This document shows positions 2,384 through 11,587 of a stretch of 11,587 bases of DNA, in pieces (position 1 is the stretch's first letter; each line of letters starts with the position of its first letter). Source of the stretch: Polyangiaceae bacterium (GTDB taxonomy: Bacteria > Myxococcota_A > Polyangia > Polyangiales > Polyangiaceae); NCBI GenBank assembly GCA_016715885.1, contig JADJXL010000022.1:1-11587 (forward strand), read 5' to 3'. The translations under genes were made by a program, and so were the position numbers. The notes beneath the pieces were generated by a model that was given only the letters and a program-made list of their open reading frames with translations, was not told where the DNA came from and searched no databases.

Positions 2384-2572
2384 TGTCGTGTGCCCTTTCT
2401 TCGTGGCGCAACCGTGCTAGCGCCCCAGTTTTCGAAATGCGCGCATCCGCGGCTTCTGCGTAGGATGTTATCAAACCACTGCTTGGTCTTCAATTGATTG
2501 ATGTTCCCCCGCGCGCACTTCTCGCTATCTTGCTCGCGCCGAGCGCACGCGCGGCAAGAGGAGTGCGACGAG
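2384..2572. promoter_or_regulatory. Divergent intergenic promoter region between the minus-strand lipoprotein gene (start 2383) and the plus-strand Rieske/cytochrome b operon (start 2573). It includes the Rieske RBS AAGAGGAG at 2556-2563.
   Basis: 189 bp non-coding gap between divergent gene starts. AAGAGGAG lies 9 nt upstream of ATG 2573. AT-richer stretches are present (ttgattgatg, ttatcaaacc). Exact -35/-10 boxes are not resolved. Confidence 0.4.
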
Positions 2573-3151
2573 ATGGCGGAAGAGATGCAGAACGAGCTGG
2601 TCGAAGAGCCTCCCAGGGTGGAACCTCCAGCAGACCTAGGCCGGACGACGAACCGTCGAGGTGCCCTCAAGGCGCTCGCTGCCGCGTCGGGAGCGATTTA
2701 TGCCGGCGCGCTCATCGTGCCCGTCACCCGCATGCTCGCCCCCTCCTCCAACGGCGAAGCGGGAAAGGCTCGATGGATCCGTGTCGGACGCCTCGCAGAC
2801 GTCAAGCCCGACGAACCCAAACGCGTCGTCGTGATCGCTGACGAACGCGATGCGTACACCATCACGCGCGATCAACTCCTCGGCTCGCTCTGGCTCGTTC
2901 GCAAGGGCGATCAAGTCACCGCGCTCAGCGCGGTTTGCCCTCACCTCGGTTGCTCCATCGACCTCAACGCAGACAAGCAAAGCTACGCATGTCCGTGTCA
3001 CGTCTCCAAGTTCTCGCTCGCCGGTGAAGCCCTCTCGGGCCCGTCACCTCGCGCGATGGATCCGCTCCAAGTACGCGTCGTGGACGGGTTTGTCGAAGTT
3101 GATTTCCGACGCTTTCGGCAAGGCATCCCCACGAAGGAGGAAGTCGGGTGA
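2573..3151 (+). CDS. Rieske [2Fe-2S] iron-sulfur subunit of a cytochrome bc-type complex, Tat-exported.
   Basis: Box I CPHLGC is at 2936-2953 and box II CPCH at 2990-3001. A twin-arginine motif (TNRRGALKALAAASGA) precedes a hydrophobic anchor. A strong RBS precedes ATG 2573. An in-frame upstream ATG at 2498 exists but has no RBS. The stop overlaps the next start in GTGA at 3148-3151. Confidence 0.9.
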   Translation: MAEEMQNELVEEPPRVEPPADLGRTTNRRGALKALAAASGAIYAGALIVPVTRMLAPSSNGEAGKARWIRVGRLADVKPDEPKRVVVIADERDAYTITRDQLLGSLWLVRKGDQVTALSAVCPHLGCSIDLNADKQSYACPCHVSKFSLAGEALSGPSPRAMDPLQVRVVDGFVEVDFRRFRQGIPTKEEVG

Positions 3152-4905
3152 AACTCGGCGATTGGATTGACGAACGCACGGGCTACCGACAGCTCGTGAA
3201 AAGCTTCGTGGAAGCGACCGTGCCTGGAGGCGCTCGTTTCGCTTACGCGTGGGGCACGGCCCTCGGCCTGATGCTCGTGGTCGTCGCCGTCACCGGCGTG
3301 CTTCTCTCCACGGTGTATGCGCCGAGTGCCACGACGGCGTGGGCCAGCGTTGCATACATCCAGCAAAAGGTGCCCGCCGGCTGGATCGTCCGCGGCCTGC
3401 ATCAGTTCGGTGCGCAAGCGCTCATCGTCCTCGGCGCCGTGCATCTCGTGCACGCCATCGTCCGAGGCGCGTACCGAAGGCCGCGCGAATTCACCTATTG
3501 GCTCGGCCTTTTGCTCTTCGGCCTCATCGTCGCCTTCGCGCTCACGGGCAACCCCTTGCGCTGGGATCAACGCGGATTCTGGGCGCTGCGCGTCGAAACC
3601 GGCATCATGGGCACCGTGCCCGTCGTCGGCACCATCATGCAAGAAGCGCTTCTCGGCGGCAGTTTGCCCGGGAACCTCACCCTCACGCGCCTCTACGCCG
3701 CGCACGCCATCGTCTTGCCGCTCGTGACGGGCCTGCTCTTCGCCATGCACGTCATGATCTCGCGAAAGCACGGCCCGGCGCTCGAAACGCCCGCGGATGC
3801 GGTCAAAGTCGAACGATATTTTCCATCGCAAGCTGCACGTGATCTCGTCGTCGCGCTGCTCGTCCTTGCCGTCGTCTTCGTTCTCACGTGGAAGCATCAC
3901 GGCGCGCCGCTCGACGCTCCGGCCGACCCGACGAGCGATTATCCGGCGCGTCCCGAATGGTACTTCCTCGCGCTCTACGAAATGCGCAAGCCGTTTCCGG
4001 GACGCCTCGAGCTCATCGCGACGGTCGTGCTTCCATTTCTCGTCGTCGGGTATCTCCTTTTGCTTCCGCTCTTCGACAAGAAGGCCGATCGAGGTGTCAT
4101 GAAGCGCCTCCCGGTGCTCGTTCCGGTGGCGCTTTTTGGCATTGGCGCGGGCGTTCTCACGGGCGCGTCGATTAGACACGACGCGGCGGATCCCGAATTC
4201 GTCAAGGCCGTTGCAAAAGCCGAGACACACGCCAAGAAATCGCTTGCGATTGCATTCGAGGGGGTACCTCCCGAGGGTGCATTGGCGATGATGCGCAATC
4301 ATCCTGAAACGCGGCGCGTGTGGCTATACGAGCAGCATTGTGCGAGCTGTCATCGCATGGGCGAAATGGGACCTCCGGCCGGCGAGGACACGGCGCCGGA
4401 CCTCACCGGGTTTGGCTCGGCGTCATGGGCTACGCGAGTGCTCATGGAGCCGGATCACGATTCGATGTTCGGCAAGACGGCATTCAAAGGCATGATGCCG
4501 AGCATGACGACGCCGCCTGACGACCCTGAAATGGCCAAGGAATTCTCGCCCATGAAGCAGGAGGACTTGAATGCCATCGTGGAATTCTTGGCGGCGCAAG
4601 CCGAGGGTGAGGGCGCGGGAATGCCGGGTGAAAAACTCGTGCGACAGCGGTGCACGGGTTGTCATCGATTCGATGGGAAAACCGACGACGAAGAATCGCT
4701 TGCACCGGAGCTTCGAGGTTGGGGATCTGTGGCGTGGATATTGGCGCAGATTGACAATCCTGGCAGTGGCAAGACGTATCCCAAGGGCGCGATGGATCCG
4801 AAGCTCGAGGGCCACATGCCGGCATTTGCGGAAAAACTGAGCGACGCCGATCGCAAGCTATTGGCGTCGTTCGTGCAAATGCAGGCGAAGAATAAAGTGA
4901 AGTAA
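3148..4905 (+). CDS. Cytochrome b (full-length, b6-plus-subunit-IV equivalent with PEWY motif) fused at its C-terminus to a di-haem c-type cytochrome domain.
   Basis: N-terminus MKLGDWIDERTGYRQLVKSF resembles cytochrome b/b6. Haem ligands are LHQFGAQALIVLGAVH (His i, i+14) and AAHAIVLPLVTGLLFAMH (His i, i+15, the b6-like spacing). The Qo-site motif PEWY is in ARPEWYFLALYE. There are two CxxCH motifs: CASCH (4339-4353) and CTGCH (4651-4665). GTG start at 3148 has RBS AAGGAGG at 3134-3140. The gene is translationally coupled to the Rieske gene. Confidence 0.9.
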   Translation: MKLGDWIDERTGYRQLVKSFVEATVPGGARFAYAWGTALGLMLVVVAVTGVLLSTVYAPSATTAWASVAYIQQKVPAGWIVRGLHQFGAQALIVLGAVHLVHAIVRGAYRRPREFTYWLGLLLFGLIVAFALTGNPLRWDQRGFWALRVETGIMGTVPVVGTIMQEALLGGSLPGNLTLTRLYAAHAIVLPLVTGLLFAMHVMISRKHGPALETPADAVKVERYFPSQAARDLVVALLVLAVVFVLTWKHHGAPLDAPADPTSDYPARPEWYFLALYEMRKPFPGRLELIATVVLPFLVVGYLLLLPLFDKKADRGVMKRLPVLVPVALFGIGAGVLTGASIRHDAADPEFVKAVAKAETHAKKSLAIAFEGVPPEGALAMMRNHPETRRVWLYEQHCASCHRMGEMGPPAGEDTAPDLTGFGSASWATRVLMEPDHDSMFGKTAFKGMMPSMTTPPDDPEMAKEFSPMKQEDLNAIVEFLAAQAEGEGAGMPGEKLVRQRCTGCHRFDGKTDDEESLAPELRGWGSVAWILAQIDNPGSGKTYPKGAMDPKLEGHMPAFAEKLSDADRKLLASFVQMQAKNKVK

Positions 4906-5826: not shown

Positions 5827-6201
5827 TCATGCCGCTTCGGGCAAGATGTACTTGATCGGCCGTACGGGCGGCACGGTCGAGGCCGCTTTAGCGAGCTCGG
5901 TGTCTGCCTCGGCGCGCAAGGCATCGAGCTTGGCCGCCGCTTCTGGAGAGACCCCCTCCGCCAGATAGAGATCCACGAGCCAGAGGGCGCGGAGGGGATC
6001 GGCCGCGCTCAGTGCGGCAGTGACCGCTCCCAGGCGCGCGATTTCGCCTTCTAGGTCATGCGCCGACGTCAAGTCGGCGATCGACTCTTCGATGCGCCCG
6101 ACCTCTCGGAAGGCTTCCCGCGCCTCGTCCGAGCCCGCTGCAAGACGCTCCGCACGGAGGATCGCCTCGGTCACACGAACGTTCAGCTCATTCAGTTCCA
6201 T
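5827..6201 (-). CDS. Hypothetical acidic, Ala/Glu-rich alpha-helical protein of 124 aa. It is the second gene of the repeat-flanked cassette.
   Basis: ATG at 6199-6201 on the minus strand is preceded by GGAG 5 nt upstream. It overlaps the stop of the upstream gene by 14 nt (ATGGAACTGAATGA). The ORF track extends the ORF to 6369, but that extension overlaps the upstream gene out of frame. GC-rich third codon positions are consistent with coding. No recognisable family. Confidence 0.55.
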   Translation of the reverse strand: MELNELNVRVTEAILRAERLAAGSDEAREAFREVGRIEESIADLTSAHDLEGEIARLGAVTAALSAADPLRALWLVDLYLAEGVSPEAAAKLDALRAEADTELAKAASTVPPVRPIKYILPEAA

Positions 6202-6622
6202 CGCTGCTCCAAAAGAGTGCCTTCGGTTCGACGAAGCGTACCACGCACGCCGCCCGCGCGGTTCCCTTCGGCCAAGAGGCCCCTTGCGCTTGGGTGACCT
6301 TCCGTTTGTACAGCATTTCGAGGTCGCCTTCGTCCGTACCGCCGACCTCGACGATGACGTTTTGGCCACCGCTCCCTATCAACCAATCGGCCCCTTCCGA
6401 AAGCCGAGATTGGAGCCGCCGCTTCACCTTCCACCCACCGCGCCTCCCGGTCAATGCGAGCGCGAGAGCTTCCGCGCCCTCCTCCGTGACCCTATTGAAG
6501 TCTTCCATTTGGGCGAGCTGCAGCGGAATTTCTTTCCACTTCAGGGCCTCACGAAGATCTTTGCCGCGCATGGTCCCCGAGAGATTTATGCCCGATTGAT
6601 GACGGCGCTCCAATGCAATCAC
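6188..6622 (-). CDS. Hypothetical basic protein of 127-144 aa. It is the first gene of the repeat-flanked cassette. The start is uncertain: GTG 6622, TTG 6613 or ATG 6571.
   Basis: The ORF is intact in the window. Its stop overlaps the start of the downstream gene. The product (…GRRGGWKVKRRLQSRLSEGADWLIGSGGQNVIVEVGGTDEGDLEMLYKRK…) has no family I can assign. Third codon positions end in A/T noticeably more often than in neighbouring genes. Confidence 0.5.
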   Translation of the reverse strand: MIALERRHQSGINLSGTMRGKDLREALKWKEIPLQLAQMEDFNRVTEEGAEALALALTGRRGGWKVKRRLQSRLSEGADWLIGSGGQNVIVEVGGTDEGDLEMLYKRKVTQAQGASWPKGTARAACVVRFVEPKALFWSSDGTE

Positions 6623-6775: not shown

Positions 6776-6992
6776 GCGCTGATCGGAGGTGGCTCAGTGA
6801 GGGTAGCGCGCCCGTAGGGCAGCGAAGGGAAAGCGACGGGAACCTTGTGCACTGTCCCATACGTGTGGGCTTCCTTGGTTCGTTCTGCTGGTGTATTGCT
6901 CACGCGGCTTGGCAAATGTGGACGGTTTGTCTGGAGCAGTAGACAGCCAAAGCCCTAACGGTTTCGACGAGTCACGTCACGCGCACGCTGTC

Positions 6993-6998
6993 AAGAGG
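6993..6998 (+). promoter_or_regulatory. Ribosome-binding site (AAGAGG) of the giant repeat-protein gene.
   Basis: AAGAGG lies 5 nt upstream of ATG 7004. Confidence 0.5.
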
Positions 6999-7003
6999 CG
7001 AAT

Positions 7004-10000
7004 ATGTCGTCGCAGAAAAATTTGATGCTGCCGATCATGGTGTTTGCGGTTCTCGCCGGTGCTGGCGGTTGCGAGCTGATCACTCGTGTGGATCGGTCCC
7101 AGATCGACGAGTTGTACCAAGGAGCCGGTGCGAGTGCTGGCGCGGGTGGTGCCGACGGCGGCAGTGGCGGCATGGGTGGCGGCGGCACTGGCGGCATGGG
7201 TGGCGGCGGCACTGGCGGCACTGGCGGCAGTGGCGGCATGGGTGGCGGCGGCACCGGCGGCGGTGGCGGCATGGGTGGCGGTGGTGGCGGCGGTGGTGGT
7301 GGCGGCAATGGTTGCGTGCCCACGGACGACATGAACGATTGCACGGACGACGTGTGCAACATGGATGGCACGACGGCGCATCTGCCCAAGTCGGTCGGCG
7401 AGCCGTGCTCGAGCGATGGAACCGTTTGCAATGGCGTTGGTCAATGCGTTCAGTGCCTCGTATCTGCTGATTGTCCCGGCACGGATGATGCGTGTGGACA
7501 GCGCACCTGTATCGACGGTGCTTGCGGGATGGATTTCACGGCATCCGATACGCCGCTTTCGACGCAAAACGCCGGCGATTGCAAGGTTGTCGTTTGTGAT
7601 GGCAATGGCGGCACCGCGAGCAAAGACGACAACGCCGACGTCCCCGACGACAGCAACGCCTGCACAACCGACGCGTGCGTCATGGGCACGCCATCCAATA
7701 CGAATCTCCCGCAAGGCAGCGACTGCACTCCATCGGGGGGCGCCGATCCTCTCGTATGCAATGGCATGGGTCAATGCGTGGGATGCAATGTTCCCGCCAA
7801 TTGTCCCGGAGTGGACGACGAATGCGGGACGCGAACATGCCTCGCCGGCGTGTGCGGCATGGACTTCACGGCGGCCGATACGCCGGTTTCGATGCAGAGC
7901 GCGGGCGATTGCAAGGTCATCGTGTGCGACGGTAGCGGCGGCACGACGAGCAAAGACGACAATACCGACGTTTCAGACGACAACAATGCCTGCACGGCCG
8001 ACGTATGCATTGCGGGTATCCCGTCGCATTCGAACCTTCCGCAAGGCACCCAATGCGCAGCGCCTGGCGGAGGCGATCCATTCGTGTGCAACGGGATGGG
8101 TCAATGCGTGGAATGCAATGCTCCCGCGGATTGTCCGGGAACGGACGACGAGTGCAAGACGCGGACATGTCTCGCCAGCACGTGCGGCGTCGATTTCACG
8201 GGTGCCAATACGCCGGTTTCCATCCAGATGCCAAACGATTGCCTCGTGCGCGTATGCGACGGCGCGGGCAATGATGTCGATATCCCCGACGATACGGACG
8301 TGCCGGTCGATGACGGAGAGACGTGCACGTACGAGGCGTGCGCGGGAGGCATGCCAATACATCCGAACGTCGCCGATGGAACATCGTGCAGTGACGGCGA
8401 AGAGTGCACGATGGCCGATACGTGCATGATGGGCGCGTGCCAGCCCGGCACGCTCATCGTGTGTCAACCTCCGGATCAATGCCACGAGCCTGGGATTTGC
8501 AATGCGATGTTGGGAGCGTGCACGTACGCGGCCAAGATCGATGGTTTTGCATGCGACGACGGCAATGGCTGTACCTTGATCGATCAATGCACGGCTGGCG
8601 TTTGTACCGGCACACCGGCTCCGGATGGCACAACGTGCATGTTGGGCGGCGTGATGGGGGCGTGTCAATCGGGCATGTGCAGCACGTGCGGCAATGGCGT
8701 CGTCGATCCACCGGAGGAATGTGATGACCTCAATGCCGTGAGTGGTGATGGTTGCAATGCATGCATCATCGAATTGACGTGCTCAGCCGGAGAATCGCGC
8801 GTCGTCGTCCTGAACAACAATCCATTGCCGATCCCCGACGTCGGTCCTTTCATGTACAGTCCGGCCGTCATCAATGCTACGGGCGGCGTGACCAAAGCAA
8901 TCGTCGTCGTACATTCGTTGACACACGAATATGCGGCCGACATCGACATGTTCTTGAGGTCCCCGCACGGATTGTATCGCGAGCTTTCGACGGACAATGG
9001 GTTCGTTGGCAACAACTACACGCGTACGACGATCGACGATGCCGCGGCCATATCCATTACGGACATCACGGCGCCGTTTACGGGCAAGTATCGGCCCGAG
9101 CAATCCATGGCGACGCTTGGAGCGGGTCTTGATTTCCTGCATCTGAATGCGTCTGGTTTTTGGTATCTGCAATTGCAAGACGACGCATCGGGCTTCGAAG
9201 GCATGCTGAATGCGTGGAGCCTCGCGCTGTGCGTGAACCCTGCGTCGTATTGCGGCGACGGCGTCGTCGATGCCGACGAAGAATGCGACGACGGCAATAC
9301 GAACGGTGGCGATTTGTGCAGCAACCTATGCCGCCTCAACGACGGCTGCGGCGACGGCAATTTCGACCTCGGCGAAGAGTGCGACGATGACAACTTGGTA
9401 TCGGGAGACGGTTGTTCCTCGGCATGCCAAGTGGAGGTTACCTGCGCGGCGGGTGAGACTCCGGTCATCGTGACGAACGACATGACCGCCGCCGTTCCGG
9501 ATGACAATGCATACCATGCCTTCCCGGTCAATGTGTCGACGCCCGGCGCCGTCGCGAAAGTCGTGGCGGTCATTGGCAGCATCGCGCACACGAACGTTCA
9601 GGAGCTCGACATTCAGCTTCAATCACCCACTGGCTTCATTCGCACATTGTCGAGCAACAATGGCGACACGGGCGACGATTACGCATCGACGTTTTTCGAT
9701 GACGACGCCGCGACATACGTCACTGCGGGAAGCGCGCCATTTCGTGGGTACTTCAAGCCCGAACAAACGTTGTCGACGACCGGTGACGCCAACTTCCGTG
9801 GGAAAAATGCCAAGGGCACGTGGAATCTCCGGATACGCGACGTGCAAACGACCAATTTCGCCGTCTTCAATTCTTGGACCATGGCGCTTTGTTTGAGCCA
9901 TGGCGAATATTGCGGTAATGGGGTGATCGAAGCGGGCGAGGAGTGCGATGATGCCAATACGAACGACGGCGACGCGTGCAGCAACCTGTGCTCGATGAAC

Positions 10001-11587
10001 GACGGTTGCGGCGACAATAACTTCGATGCGGGCGAAGAATGTGACGACGACAATATCGTGTCGGGTGACGGTTGCTCGGCAACGTGTCAGGTCGAAATCA
10101 CCTGCGATGCAGGGCAGATGCCGGTCAAGGTCACGAATGGAACGGCAGCGACCATCAATGGCTCGTCCACGTTGAACCAGTTTCCCGTGAACGTGGCCGC
10201 CGCGGGCGCCGTGAAAAAGGCCATCGCGGTCATTGGCAACGTGCCCGACGTGCGCAACGACCGCATCACGATCGACCTGCTGTCGCCCATTGGAACGAAG
10301 AGGCATTTGTCGAGCGCCAATGGTGGAACCTCCATCGGTGGTTATACATCGACGTTTTTCGACGATTCGGCCGCAGTGCCCATTACGAGCAGCACACATC
10401 CCATGAAGGGACGCTACCAGCCGGAGGAGTCGATATCGACGACGGTGGGCACGGATTTCAGCAACGAAAACCCGCTGGGCACGTGGAACCTGCAAATCAA
10501 GCTCACGGGGTCCGCGGCCGGAACGCTCCAAAGCTGGACGCTGGGCATGTGCCTGGATACCGTCACCTATTGCGGCAACGGAACGCTCGATCCGGGCGAG
10601 CAATGCGACGACGGCAATTACAACAACAACGATCTGTGCAGCAATGCCTGCAAGAATCTGGGATGCGGCGATGGCCTATACGACGTCGGCGAGCAGTGCG
10701 ACGATGGAAATACGGTGTCGGGTGACGGGTGTTCGTCTACCTGTACGCTGGAAATGGATTGCGCCCCTGGTCAGACGGAAGTCACGGCATTGTTCGAAAC
10801 GCCGACACCGATTCCCGTGGGTGGCAGCGTTTATCACGATTATCCCGTGAACGTGGCGCCGACGGGTGGAGTCAAGAAGGTCAAGGTCGCGCTTGGCTTC
10901 ATCGACAAATCCGCGACGAAGGACCTCGATCTCCGATTGCAATCTCCTTTCGGGACGATCCGCAACCTCTCCATGCGCAATTCCGGCACGAACAGCACGG
11001 TAGGGTACGATTACTTGTCGACGATCTTCGATGAAGCGGCGACGTTTTCCATTGCCTCGGCCCCATATCCGTTCAGCGGCACGTTCCGGCCCGAGCATTC
11101 ACTGTCCACGATTCAAGGGAAAGACTTTCTCGAAGAAGCAGCCAGTGGCACGTGGAATCTCCAGGCGCGGATCCAACTCGTGAGCTCCTCTTCGGGAACG
11201 GTGTATAGCTGGACCCTGGGGCTTTGCGTCGATACCGTCACGTATTGCGGCAATGGCACCGTGGATTCGGGCGAGGAATGCGACGACGGAAACATCACGA
11301 ACAACGATGGATGTTCGGACATCTGCGGCTTGGAAACCGGTTGCGGCAACGGAACCATCGACGCGGGAGAAGAGTGCGACGATGATGGCTTTCTATCGGG
11401 CGACGGTTGTTCACCGACGTGTCAGGTTGAAATCGACTGTGCGCCAGGACAAACCCGGGTGGTCGTTGCGGATTTGTCGCCGTCGCCGATCATCGACAAC
11501 ACCACCACGTATACGTCGGTCAACATGCCGACGGACGGCGCCGTCAAGAAGGTCGTCGTCACCCTGGGCAAGATCAGCCATGCGAGC
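7004..11587 (+). CDS. Very large secreted/cell-surface repeat protein, 3'-partial (at least 1528 aa in the window). Order of regions: signal peptide (possible lipobox AGGC); Gly-rich linker; three 110-aa cysteine-rich modules; a further Cys-rich region; then repeating units of [proprotein-convertase P-domain-like + two Myxococcus cysteine-rich (TIGR02232-type) repeats].
   Basis: Manual translation from ATG 7004 (frame 2) runs to the window end with no stop. The N-terminus is MSSQKNLMLPIMVFAVLAGAGGC. The CGDG/CGNG-x4-5-EECDDGN-x3-4-GDxCSxxC repeats sit at 8687-8773, 9248-9430, 9908-10090, 10568-10750 and 11243-11425. P-domain-like modules (motifs AHTNVQELDIQLQSPTGF, GTWNLRIRD, FNSWTMALCL) sit at about 8774-9240, 9431-9900, 10091-10560, 10751-11236 and 11417 onward. 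No subtilisin catalytic domain was seen in the first 1528 aa. Confidence 0.85.
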   Translation, partial: MSSQKNLMLPIMVFAVLAGAGGCELITRVDRSQIDELYQGAGASAGAGGADGGSGGMGGGGTGGMGGGGTGGTGGSGGMGGGGTGGGGGMGGGGGGGGGGGNGCVPTDDMNDCTDDVCNMDGTTAHLPKSVGEPCSSDGTVCNGVGQCVQCLVSADCPGTDDACGQRTCIDGACGMDFTASDTPLSTQNAGDCKVVVCDGNGGTASKDDNADVPDDSNACTTDACVMGTPSNTNLPQGSDCTPSGGADPLVCNGMGQCVGCNVPANCPGVDDECGTRTCLAGVCGMDFTAADTPVSMQSAGDCKVIVCDGSGGTTSKDDNTDVSDDNNACTADVCIAGIPSHSNLPQGTQCAAPGGGDPFVCNGMGQCVECNAPADCPGTDDECKTRTCLASTCGVDFTGANTPVSIQMPNDCLVRVCDGAGNDVDIPDDTDVPVDDGETCTYEACAGGMPIHPNVADGTSCSDGEECTMADTCMMGACQPGTLIVCQPPDQCHEPGICNAMLGACTYAAKIDGFACDDGNGCTLIDQCTAGVCTGTPAPDGTTCMLGGVMGACQSGMCSTCGNGVVDPPEECDDLNAVSGDGCNACIIELTCSAGESRVVVLNNNPLPIPDVGPFMYSPAVINATGGVTKAIVVVHSLTHEYAADIDMFLRSPHGLYRELSTDNGFVGNNYTRTTIDDAAAISITDITAPFTGKYRPEQSMATLGAGLDFLHLNASGFWYLQLQDDASGFEGMLNAWSLALCVNPASYCGDGVVDADEECDDGNTNGGDLCSNLCRLNDGCGDGNFDLGEECDDDNLVSGDGCSSACQVEVTCAAGETPVIVTNDMTAAVPDDNAYHAFPVNVSTPGAVAKVVAVIGSIAHTNVQELDIQLQSPTGFIRTLSSNNGDTGDDYASTFFDDDAATYVTAGSAPFRGYFKPEQTLSTTGDANFRGKNAKGTWNLRIRDVQTTNFAVFNSWTMALCLSHGEYCGNGVIEAGEECDDANTNDGDACSNLCSMNDGCGDNNFDAGEECDDDNIVSGDGCSATCQVEITCDAGQMPVKVTNGTAATINGSSTLNQFPVNVAAAGAVKKAIAVIGNVPDVRNDRITIDLLSPIGTKRHLSSANGGTSIGGYTSTFFDDSAAVPITSSTHPMKGRYQPEESISTTVGTDFSNENPLGTWNLQIKLTGSAAGTLQSWTLGMCLDTVTYCGNGTLDPGEQCDDGNYNNNDLCSNACKNLGCGDGLYDVGEQCDDGNTVSGDGCSSTCTLEMDCAPGQTEVTALFETPTPIPVGGSVYHDYPVNVAPTGGVKKVKVALGFIDKSATKDLDLRLQSPFGTIRNLSMRNSGTNSTVGYDYLSTIFDEAATFSIASAPYPFSGTFRPEHSLSTIQGKDFLEEAASGTWNLQARIQLVSSSSGTVYSWTLGLCVDTVTYCGNGTVDSGEECDDGNITNNDGCSDICGLETGCGNGTIDAGEECDDDGFLSGDGCSPTCQVEIDCAPGQTRVVVADLSPSPIIDNTTTYTSVNMPTDGAVKKVVVTLGKISHAS
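7150..7306 (+). repeat. Imperfect ~24-nt tandem repeat (ATGGGTGGCGGCGGCACTGGCGGC-like units) encoding a (GGMGGGGT)n glycine-rich linker.
   Basis: The ATG-GGT-GGC-GGC-GGC-AC(T/C)-GGC unit recurs at 7172, 7196, 7238 and 7271. The reverse strand reads as a poly-Pro ORF (6991..7431), which is an artefact. Confidence 0.7.
7427..8416 (+). repeat. Three tandem 330-bp repeats encoding 110-aa cysteine-rich modules (CNGMGQCVxC...DCPGTDDECxTRTC...CGxDFT...GDCKVxVCDGxGGTxSKDDN...DDxNACTxDxC...NLPQG).
   Basis: TGCAATGGC(G/A)T(T/G)GGTCAATGCGT recurs at 7427, 7757 and 8087 with an exact 330-nt period. The third copy is more diverged. Confidence 0.75.
9248..11587 (+). repeat. At least 3.5 tandem super-repeats of 660-675 bp, each encoding two myxo-type cysteine-rich repeats followed by a P-domain-like module.
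   Basis: TATTGCGG(C/T)(G/A)A recurs at 9248, 9908, 10568 and 11243, giving periods of 660, 660 and 675. The units share only about 50% identity at the protein level, so they are old duplications rather than an assembly artefact. Confidence 0.75.

Follow-up and report, generated by a model that had tools for sequence, protein, structure and literature searches.

A giant predicted lipoprotein of a Polyangiaceae bacterium with an array of P-domains and no recognizable protease domain

The window analysed here is a stretch of 11,587 nucleotides from a Polyangiaceae bacterium (contig JADJXL010000022.1 of assembly GCA_016715885.1). Its plus strand carries, from position 7004 up to the window end at 11587, a giant gene for a protein in which small cysteine-rich repeats alternate with P-domains of the kind known from the proprotein convertases kexin and furin. 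Neither the part of the protein encoded in the window nor its full-length orthologs contain a catalytic domain. Our best explanation, which we hold at somewhat better than even confidence, is that the protein is a cell-envelope-anchored, fibrillar-adhesin-like and non-catalytic lipoprotein whose P-domains would serve as multivalent binding modules. Arrays of P-domains without a protease are common, and the window protein is a further member of a known and annotated kind; the only part with some novelty may be its uncurated N-terminal cassette (the N-terminal approximately 480 residues) rather than the P-domains.

The reading frame leaves little room for doubt. From the ATG at 7004, frame 1 holds 1528 codons without a stop and is still open at the window end, in agreement with an earlier reading made from the letters of the window alone (the sequence-only reading), which had given the gene at least 1528 codons before the window ends. 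Because no ATG, GTG, or TTG is found between the in-frame TAA at 6956-6958 and the ATG at 7004, the first possible start downstream of that stop, and because the Shine-Dalgarno-like AAGAGG is placed in front of this ATG (Table 1), the start and the open reading frame (ORF) are unambiguous. A promoter and terminator scan gave no site close to the start of the giant gene, and an Rfam scan of the whole window gave no match. Of the 1528 residues of the window protein 100 are cysteines (6.5%), and Gly, Asp, and Thr are abundant as well; the cysteine content, together with the presence of a lipobox and the absence of a transmembrane segment, suggests an extracytoplasmic location.

The P-domain array and its relatives

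Profile searches placed both domain types that the sequence-only reading had named above their cut-offs. In the whole window protein, PF01483 (P_proprotein) scored 97.3 bits in Pfam (gathering cut-off 21 bits) and PF13948 (DUF4215) 91.2 bits in six stretches (cut-off 27 bits), while TIGR02232 (myxo_disulf_rpt) scored 224.7 bits in nine stretches in NCBIfam (cut-off 20.8 bits); a regular expression also places nine of these repeats. Each of the four complete P-domains exceeded the PF01483 cut-off when scanned alone (Table 1). Between residues 562 and 1528 the array begins with one TIGR02232 repeat and P-domain 1 (P1) and goes on with four units, each of two TIGR02232 repeats followed by one P-domain (P2 to P5), of which P5 is incomplete. 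The proposed unit of two TIGR02232 repeats and one P-domain, said to occur at least four times, is thus found in the later units, but not in the first unit with its single TIGR02232 repeat. At the DNA level, repeat families recur with a spacing of 660-675 bp between 8687 and 11575, and a 96-bp (32-aa) Cys sub-repeat (family D4) occurs twice per 660-bp unit. The sequence-only reading had described three hierarchical and nested repeat systems in the gene. The repeats of approximately 24 nt, 330 bp, and 660-675 bp are all present, but the three systems are consecutive, and only the 96-bp repeat within the 660-bp unit is nested.

The assignment of the P-domains was further backed by an AlphaFold prediction of one super-repeat, unit 2 (23 aligned units). 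The predicted P-domain is a jelly-roll beta-sandwich as in the P-domain of kexin and furin, with furin as the top fold match, and its predicted local distance difference test (pLDDT) values are mostly above 90 (82-96 as means of 10-residue blocks). An invariant Cys is found before and at the end of every P-domain (C65 and C214 in the alignment of P-domain units), suggesting that this bracketing pair may form the closing disulfide of the domain. For the small repeats, searching with the unit profile also gave a match to a single repeat each in the human proteins pappalysin-1 (PAPP-A) and pappalysin-2 (PAPP-A2), with E-values of 1e-5 and 5e-6, respectively, so that a solved counterpart of the TIGR02232 repeat exists. 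The matching repeat is the second one in each unit (9347-9442 and its equivalents), which resembles residues ~866-899 of pappalysin-1 and 881-913 of pappalysin-2 and keeps the four cysteines, GE.CDD, and GDGCS. The TIGR02232/DUF4215-type pattern CGDG...GE.CDD.N...GDGCS..C is what the pappalysins have in common with the window protein, while the rest of the proteins is unrelated.

No Peptidase_S8 match was obtained with Pfam in the 1528-aa window protein. The Cys-rich N-terminal region of 458 aa gave zero Pfam or NCBIfam matches even at E<=1 and no catalytic domain is found upstream of the P-domains, in agreement with the sequence-only reading, which had described them as autonomous modules behind a Cys-rich N-terminus. 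The known convertases and bacterial kexin-like proteases (furin, 4omc; Aeromonas sobria ASP, 3wqb/3hjr) differ from the window protein in having an S8 catalytic domain, and also in having a single P-domain after the protease, whereas five P-domains are seen here and approximately seven may be expected, each bracketed by cysteines.

Since the window cuts the gene within P-domain 5, one could imagine that the gene encodes a true protease with its catalytic domain past the window end. We regard this as extremely improbable in view of the orthologs. The best matches are P0002 from Polyangium sp. 6x1 (1871 aa, 59% identity) and P0001 from Polyangium sorediatum (1816 aa, 56% identity), each over 86% of the query and each named "proprotein convertase P-domain-containing protein" by NCBI. 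Both have seven P-domains and twelve TIGR02232 repeats and extend no more than a few residues past the last P-domain, and neither full-length protein has a match to Peptidase_S8 or MYXO-CTERM. The more distant P0004 (2033 aa), with nine repeats of the N-terminal stalk type described below and four P-domains, likewise ends at the last P-domain. Furthermore, in the proprotein convertases the catalytic domain is N-terminal to the P-domain. The sequence-only reading had itself pointed at a downstream subtilisin domain, with each P-domain belonging to a separate protease gene, as the outcome that would speak against it; no such domain is present in the window, the orthologs end after the seventh P-domain, and the genes flanking P0001 and P0002, of which none recurs at the other locus or in the window, include no protease. 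Judging from the two orthologs, the approximately 500 residues beyond the window would comprise the rest of P5 and two more units.

The window protein and the two Polyangium orthologs share the same order of modules, namely a lipobox region, a Gly-rich linker, Cys repeats of 110 aa, and the alternation of TIGR02232 repeats and P-domains. The window protein differs by a longer Gly-rich linker, by three full stalk repeats against two, and by its genomic neighbourhood; the extra stalk repeat fits the 74-77% DNA identity of stalk copies 1 and 2. When units were compared by position, the identity of unit 1 to its counterpart was 69% in P0002 and 62% in P0001, and that of unit 2 was 63% and 57%, respectively, whereas the P-domains within the window protein are only 36-46% identical pairwise. 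Since positional counterparts are so much closer (57-69%) than neighbours in the same protein, the array is old and its units are individually maintained. Units 3 and 4 have diverged further, with a best match of approximately 50% and no clear positional partner in P0001 and P0002. An assembly artefact or a recent repeat expansion was also considered and is ruled out by the same figures. In GTDB genomes the relatives belong nearly all to the Myxococcota (Polyangiales, Kofleriaceae, Sandaracinaceae, and Nannocystaceae), and relatives are present in many metagenomes too.

To see how widespread P-domains are, 1.84 billion cluster representatives were searched exhaustively with a P-domain profile. 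At E<=1e-3 there were 27,915 matching representatives, and at the stricter E<=1e-10 there were 13,069. In each of the best 150 of the 27,915, from 2 to 19 stretches matched, and their lengths reach 7,799 aa. A Pfam scan of 10 multi-P-domain proteins from these 150 found a peptidase domain in none of them; the partner modules were instead DUF4215, immunoglobulin (Ig)-like domains of the HYDIN/ASH type, thrombospondin type-3 repeats (TSP3), one EACC1 match, and a sorting tail of the type IX secretion system (T9SS). The rarity of a protease-less P-domain architecture, which the sequence-only reading had implied, does not survive these numbers: there are 27,915 representatives, all ten sampled proteins lack a protease, and the orthologs had already been named by NCBI. 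P-domains appear very often as repeated modules of giant surface proteins, away from proteases, and the name of the Pfam family misleads annotators. Among the protease-less metagenomic proteins, P0133 (4243 aa) and P0135 (3651 aa) have 10 P-domains each, interleaved with HYDIN/ASH Ig-like domains, P0144 (801 aa) has five P-domains and a T9SS sorting tail, and P0152 (968 aa) has five P-domains and thrombospondin type-3 repeats. Short proteins with PF01483 alone also occur, nine of which were found in a word-indexed search with a P-domain alignment.

The same sample bears on another explanation, in which the protein assists secreted proteases without being catalytic itself and its free P-domains bind or stabilise subtilases in trans, or hold them at the cell surface. 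To our knowledge, the only experimentally known role of a P-domain is the support of an S8 catalytic domain (kexin, furin), which counts in favour of such a partner, as does furin being the top fold match. However, no protease gene adjoins the giant gene or its orthologs, and 10 of the 10 sampled multi-P-domain proteins combine their P-domains with Ig-like, TSP3, or T9SS modules and not with proteases, and we find a protease partner very unlikely.

The predicted N-terminal anchor and the stalk repeats

The N-terminus of the window protein, MSSQKNLMLPIMVFAVLAGAGG-C23, satisfies the PROSITE PS51257-type lipobox pattern and predicts a lipoprotein; the pattern is also found in 69 of the 113 homologs that start with M. 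It is followed by a motif, in the window protein CELITRVDRSQI at residues 23-34. Its broader form, [AGS]-C-[ED]-[LIVA]-[LIV]-x(2-4)-D-R-[STGD]-x-[LIV], was looked for in 121 related proteins and has 32 carriers (the window protein counted), in which it is always placed at the lipobox Cys. A narrower form is C-E-[LI]-[IV]-x3-D-R-[ST]-x-I, and motif carriers include the N-termini of P0006, P0009, P0013, P0018, P0022, P0028, and P0039. In all 32 motif proteins a low-complexity linker comes next (7-107 residues, 70-98% G/T/S/A/P) and the stalk repeat is present, while the C-terminal domains of the motif-bearing relatives differ. The motif is covered by no Pfam or NCBIfam model and may be a candidate signal for lipoprotein sorting. 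In the window the linker corresponds to an array of Gly codons (GGN-based) at 7156-7316, for which TRF reported periods from 9 to 42 nt, 24 and 33 among them.

After the linker come 3.4 copies of the stalk repeat, three of them full and one partial. With a hidden Markov model (HMM) built from the three repeats of the window each full copy scored 174-190 bits, and relatives show the same partial match (HMM positions 52-101). The corresponding 330-bp DNA repeat was detected at 7523-8228 as 2.1 copies at 77%. The stalk repeat belongs to no Pfam or NCBIfam family, and its AlphaFold model, which has a mean pLDDT of 95.2, gave no fold match in the PDB. The repeats are predicted to form a stalk of beta-hairpins rich in disulfides. 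When the 120 best homologs were surveyed with the HMM, 104 of them had the repeat, in 2-17 copies (median 7) and almost always N-terminally, and most of these homologs end in other ways than the window protein, with LTD and Big_5, PPC, VCBS/FG-GAP, Kelch, Dicty_CTDC, or C-type lectin domains.

A design with a display stalk and an exchangeable head fits these observations, because lipobox, motif, linker, and stalk recur in proteins with other C-terminal domains. We tentatively put forward, as a possibility that may well turn out wrong, that the Polyangiia have a so far undescribed surface-display lipoprotein cassette consisting of the lipobox Cys, the sorting motif, a tether rich in G/T/S, and the stalk repeat of approximately 108 aa with five disulfides. 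Its heads would be swapped by domain shuffling (P-domain arrays, but also LTD/Big_5, PPC, VCBS, Kelch, and C-type lectin domains), and the P-domain array would act like a multivalent lectin, each unit having a ligand of its own. In the Polyangiaceae the combination of lipobox, motif, tether, and Cys stalk is joined to many heads and has neither a curated model nor a solved structure.

The putative function of the giant protein

If the protein is an envelope-anchored and adhesin-like lipoprotein as proposed above, it would be exported by the Sec pathway and lipidated at Cys23, leaving the N-terminus tethered to a membrane and the remainder presumably exposed at the surface, with the 12-residue motif after the Cys possibly directing the sorting. 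A flexible Gly-rich linker would then lead to a stiff stalk of disulfide-locked 110-aa repeats, and past the stalk approximately seven P-domain beta-sandwiches, a number based on the orthologs, would be spaced by pairs of acidic TIGR02232 repeats with four cysteines each, every P-domain being bracketed by cysteines. The P-domains, which are of the galactose-binding-domain-like jelly-roll class, would bind matrix polysaccharide, a substrate, or another cell surface instead of helping a protease.

The protein resembles the fibrillar adhesins (Monzon and Bateman; PMC8286594, PMC9210967), which are also long surface proteins with a repeated stalk and beta-sandwich domains, and the combination of tandem stalk repeats and a cell anchor that marks these adhesins is found here as 3.4 stalk copies and a lipobox. 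It differs by a disulfide-rich stalk in place of an Ig-like one, by its predicted N-terminal lipid anchor, and by having no proven adhesive domain. A survey of predicted fibrillar adhesin-like proteins did include a cluster of P_proprotein-like domains, whose function was ambiguous (PMC9210967). From the lipoprotein signal, the 100 cysteines, the design of stalk and beta-sandwiches, and the DUF4215 repeats of diatom trails, we infer, reasonably we believe, that the protein may be an adhesin or a matrix scaffold.

In the second of these alternatives the protein would be released past the outer membrane as a structural scaffold of the extracellular matrix and built into the matrix, or into a fruiting-body or slime layer, and its repeats would provide length and cross-linking and not specific binding. 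Such a scaffold would suit a disulfide-rich and repetitive protein, and DUF4215 repeats are known from secreted adhesive trails of diatoms, where the trail protein Ca5255 has twelve of them; this small Cys repeat is the only part that Ca5255 and the window protein have in common. Some lipoproteins are indeed sent into the matrix by Myxococcus xanthus, in which Lys at position +2 specifies the inner membrane and Ala at position +7 is required for matrix export of FibA (PMC3222651). The +7 Ala is absent from the window protein, however, and the position-by-position conservation of the P-domain units suggests distinct roles for them and not those of mere spacers, so that we judge a released scaffold to be unlikely.

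The divergence of units 3 and 4, those furthest from the orthologs at approximately 50% identity, could be taken as a sign of a cell-cell recognition receptor like TraA of M. xanthus, with variable beta-sandwiches on a Cys-rich stalk that mediate homotypic or kin-specific contact. The general design is alike, since TraA (PMC3325183) is also a myxobacterial surface protein with a beta-sandwich recognition domain on myxobacterial Cys-rich repeats. TraA has, however, a PA14 domain together with TIGR04201 repeats and a MYXO-CTERM tag. Pfam and NCBIfam scans found none of the three in the window protein, nor do they occur in the full-length orthologs, and the predicted anchor is an N-terminal lipid and not a C-terminal tag. 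Neither is a traB-like partner gene found beside the giant gene or its orthologs (the ORFs of the window were scanned in part). A TraA-type receptor is in our opinion improbable.

A fibrillar-adhesin-like lipoprotein thus remains the explanation we prefer, but several observations weigh against it. The P-domain of kexin and furin has its role in the intramolecular stabilisation of the catalytic domain and not in ligand binding. The gene runs past the window end and the protein's own C-terminus is outside the window. In the AlphaFold prediction of unit 2, the two TIGR02232 repeats had low confidence (pLDDT approximately 40). With Glu at +2 and Val at +7 the protein does not follow the +7-Ala rule for matrix export, and the M. 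xanthus rules therefore assign no location to it, although these rules may not be those of the Polyangiaceae. Finally, literature searches gave no study of the window protein or its orthologs, and none of P-domains in myxobacteria or of the PAPP-A repeat.

Taken alone, the window protein is one more in a large annotated family of myxobacterial surface proteins and would not surprise a specialist. Proteins of this kind are candidates for the attachment of non-model myxobacteria to prey, to polysaccharide, or to each other, and the structure and ligand of a single unit would make functional sense of thousands of entries in the databases.

Feature positions and neighbouring genes

Table 1 Features of the giant gene and its product, with positions in the window.
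Feature	Residues	Position	Strand	Basis
Shine-Dalgarno-like AAGAGG		6993..6998	+	5 nt 5' of start codon, read directly
Signal peptide ending in lipobox, ...VLAGAGG-C23	1-23	7004..7072	+	Translation, PROSITE PS51257-type pattern
Post-lipobox motif C-E-L-I-T-R-V-D-R-S-Q-I	23-34	7070..7105	+	Regular expression across 121 related proteins
Gly-rich low-complexity linker	35-103	7106..7312	+	46 of 69 residues Gly; short GGN-based tandem repeats
Partial copy (C-terminal part) of 110-aa Cys repeat	104-147	7313..7444	+	Sequence comparison
Three tandem ~110-aa repeats, 10 invariant Cys each	148-477	7445..8434	+	330-bp DNA repeat, HMM
Cys-rich connector, C..G.C / DG..C-type motifs	478-561	8435..8686	+	Translation, Cys map; no family match
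TIGR02232/DUF4215 Cys-rich acidic repeat 1	562-593	8687..8782	+	NCBIfam, Cys map
P-domain 1	594-749	8783..9250	+	PF01483, 30.7 bits alone
TIGR02232 repeats 2 and 3	750-813	9251..9442	+	NCBIfam; PAPP-A/PAPP-A2 match, E 5e-6 to 1e-5
P-domain 2	814-969	9443..9910	+	PF01483, 47.8 bits alone
TIGR02232 repeats 4 and 5	970-1033	9911..10102	+	NCBIfam, Cys map
P-domain 3	1034-1189	10103..10570	+	PF01483, 29.0 bits alone
TIGR02232 repeats 6 and 7	1190-1252	10571..10759	+	NCBIfam, Cys map
P-domain 4	1253-1414	10760..11245	+	PF01483, 25.7 bits alone
TIGR02232 repeats 8 and 9	1415-1478	11246..11437	+	NCBIfam, Cys map
P-domain 5, N-terminal ~50 residues, up to window end		11438..11587	+	Custom P-domain HMM, 23.5 bits, positions 1-50

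Further genes were noted in the window upstream of the giant gene. On the minus strand, 5827-6369 is an ORF of 180 aa with a plausible core starting from MELNELNV, which looks helical, is rich in Ala and Glu, and had no family match at the thresholds used. Also on the minus strand, at approximately 420-2400, a second and unrelated Cys-rich repeat gene was found with a period of approximately 70 aa (G.C.DG.CC..C.G.C.AC...G.DG.CGPI..DPD.EC). Its only intact ORF is 1507-2190 (227 aa, no Pfam match), and since the repeat goes on downstream in other frames, at least four frameshifts or stops must be present; the gene is either a pseudogene or affected by indel errors in the assembly. On the plus strand, a gene for a Rieske 2Fe-2S protein (2498-3151) overlaps by 4 nt with 3148-4905, which encodes a fusion of cytochrome b (N- and C-terminal parts) with a dihaem cytochrome c module at the C-terminus. 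As the Rieske and cytochrome b genes are unlinked to P0001 and P0002, an operon-based function for the giant gene was dropped. Considered by themselves, the Rieske and cytochrome b/c genes look like a bc-type variant of complex III.

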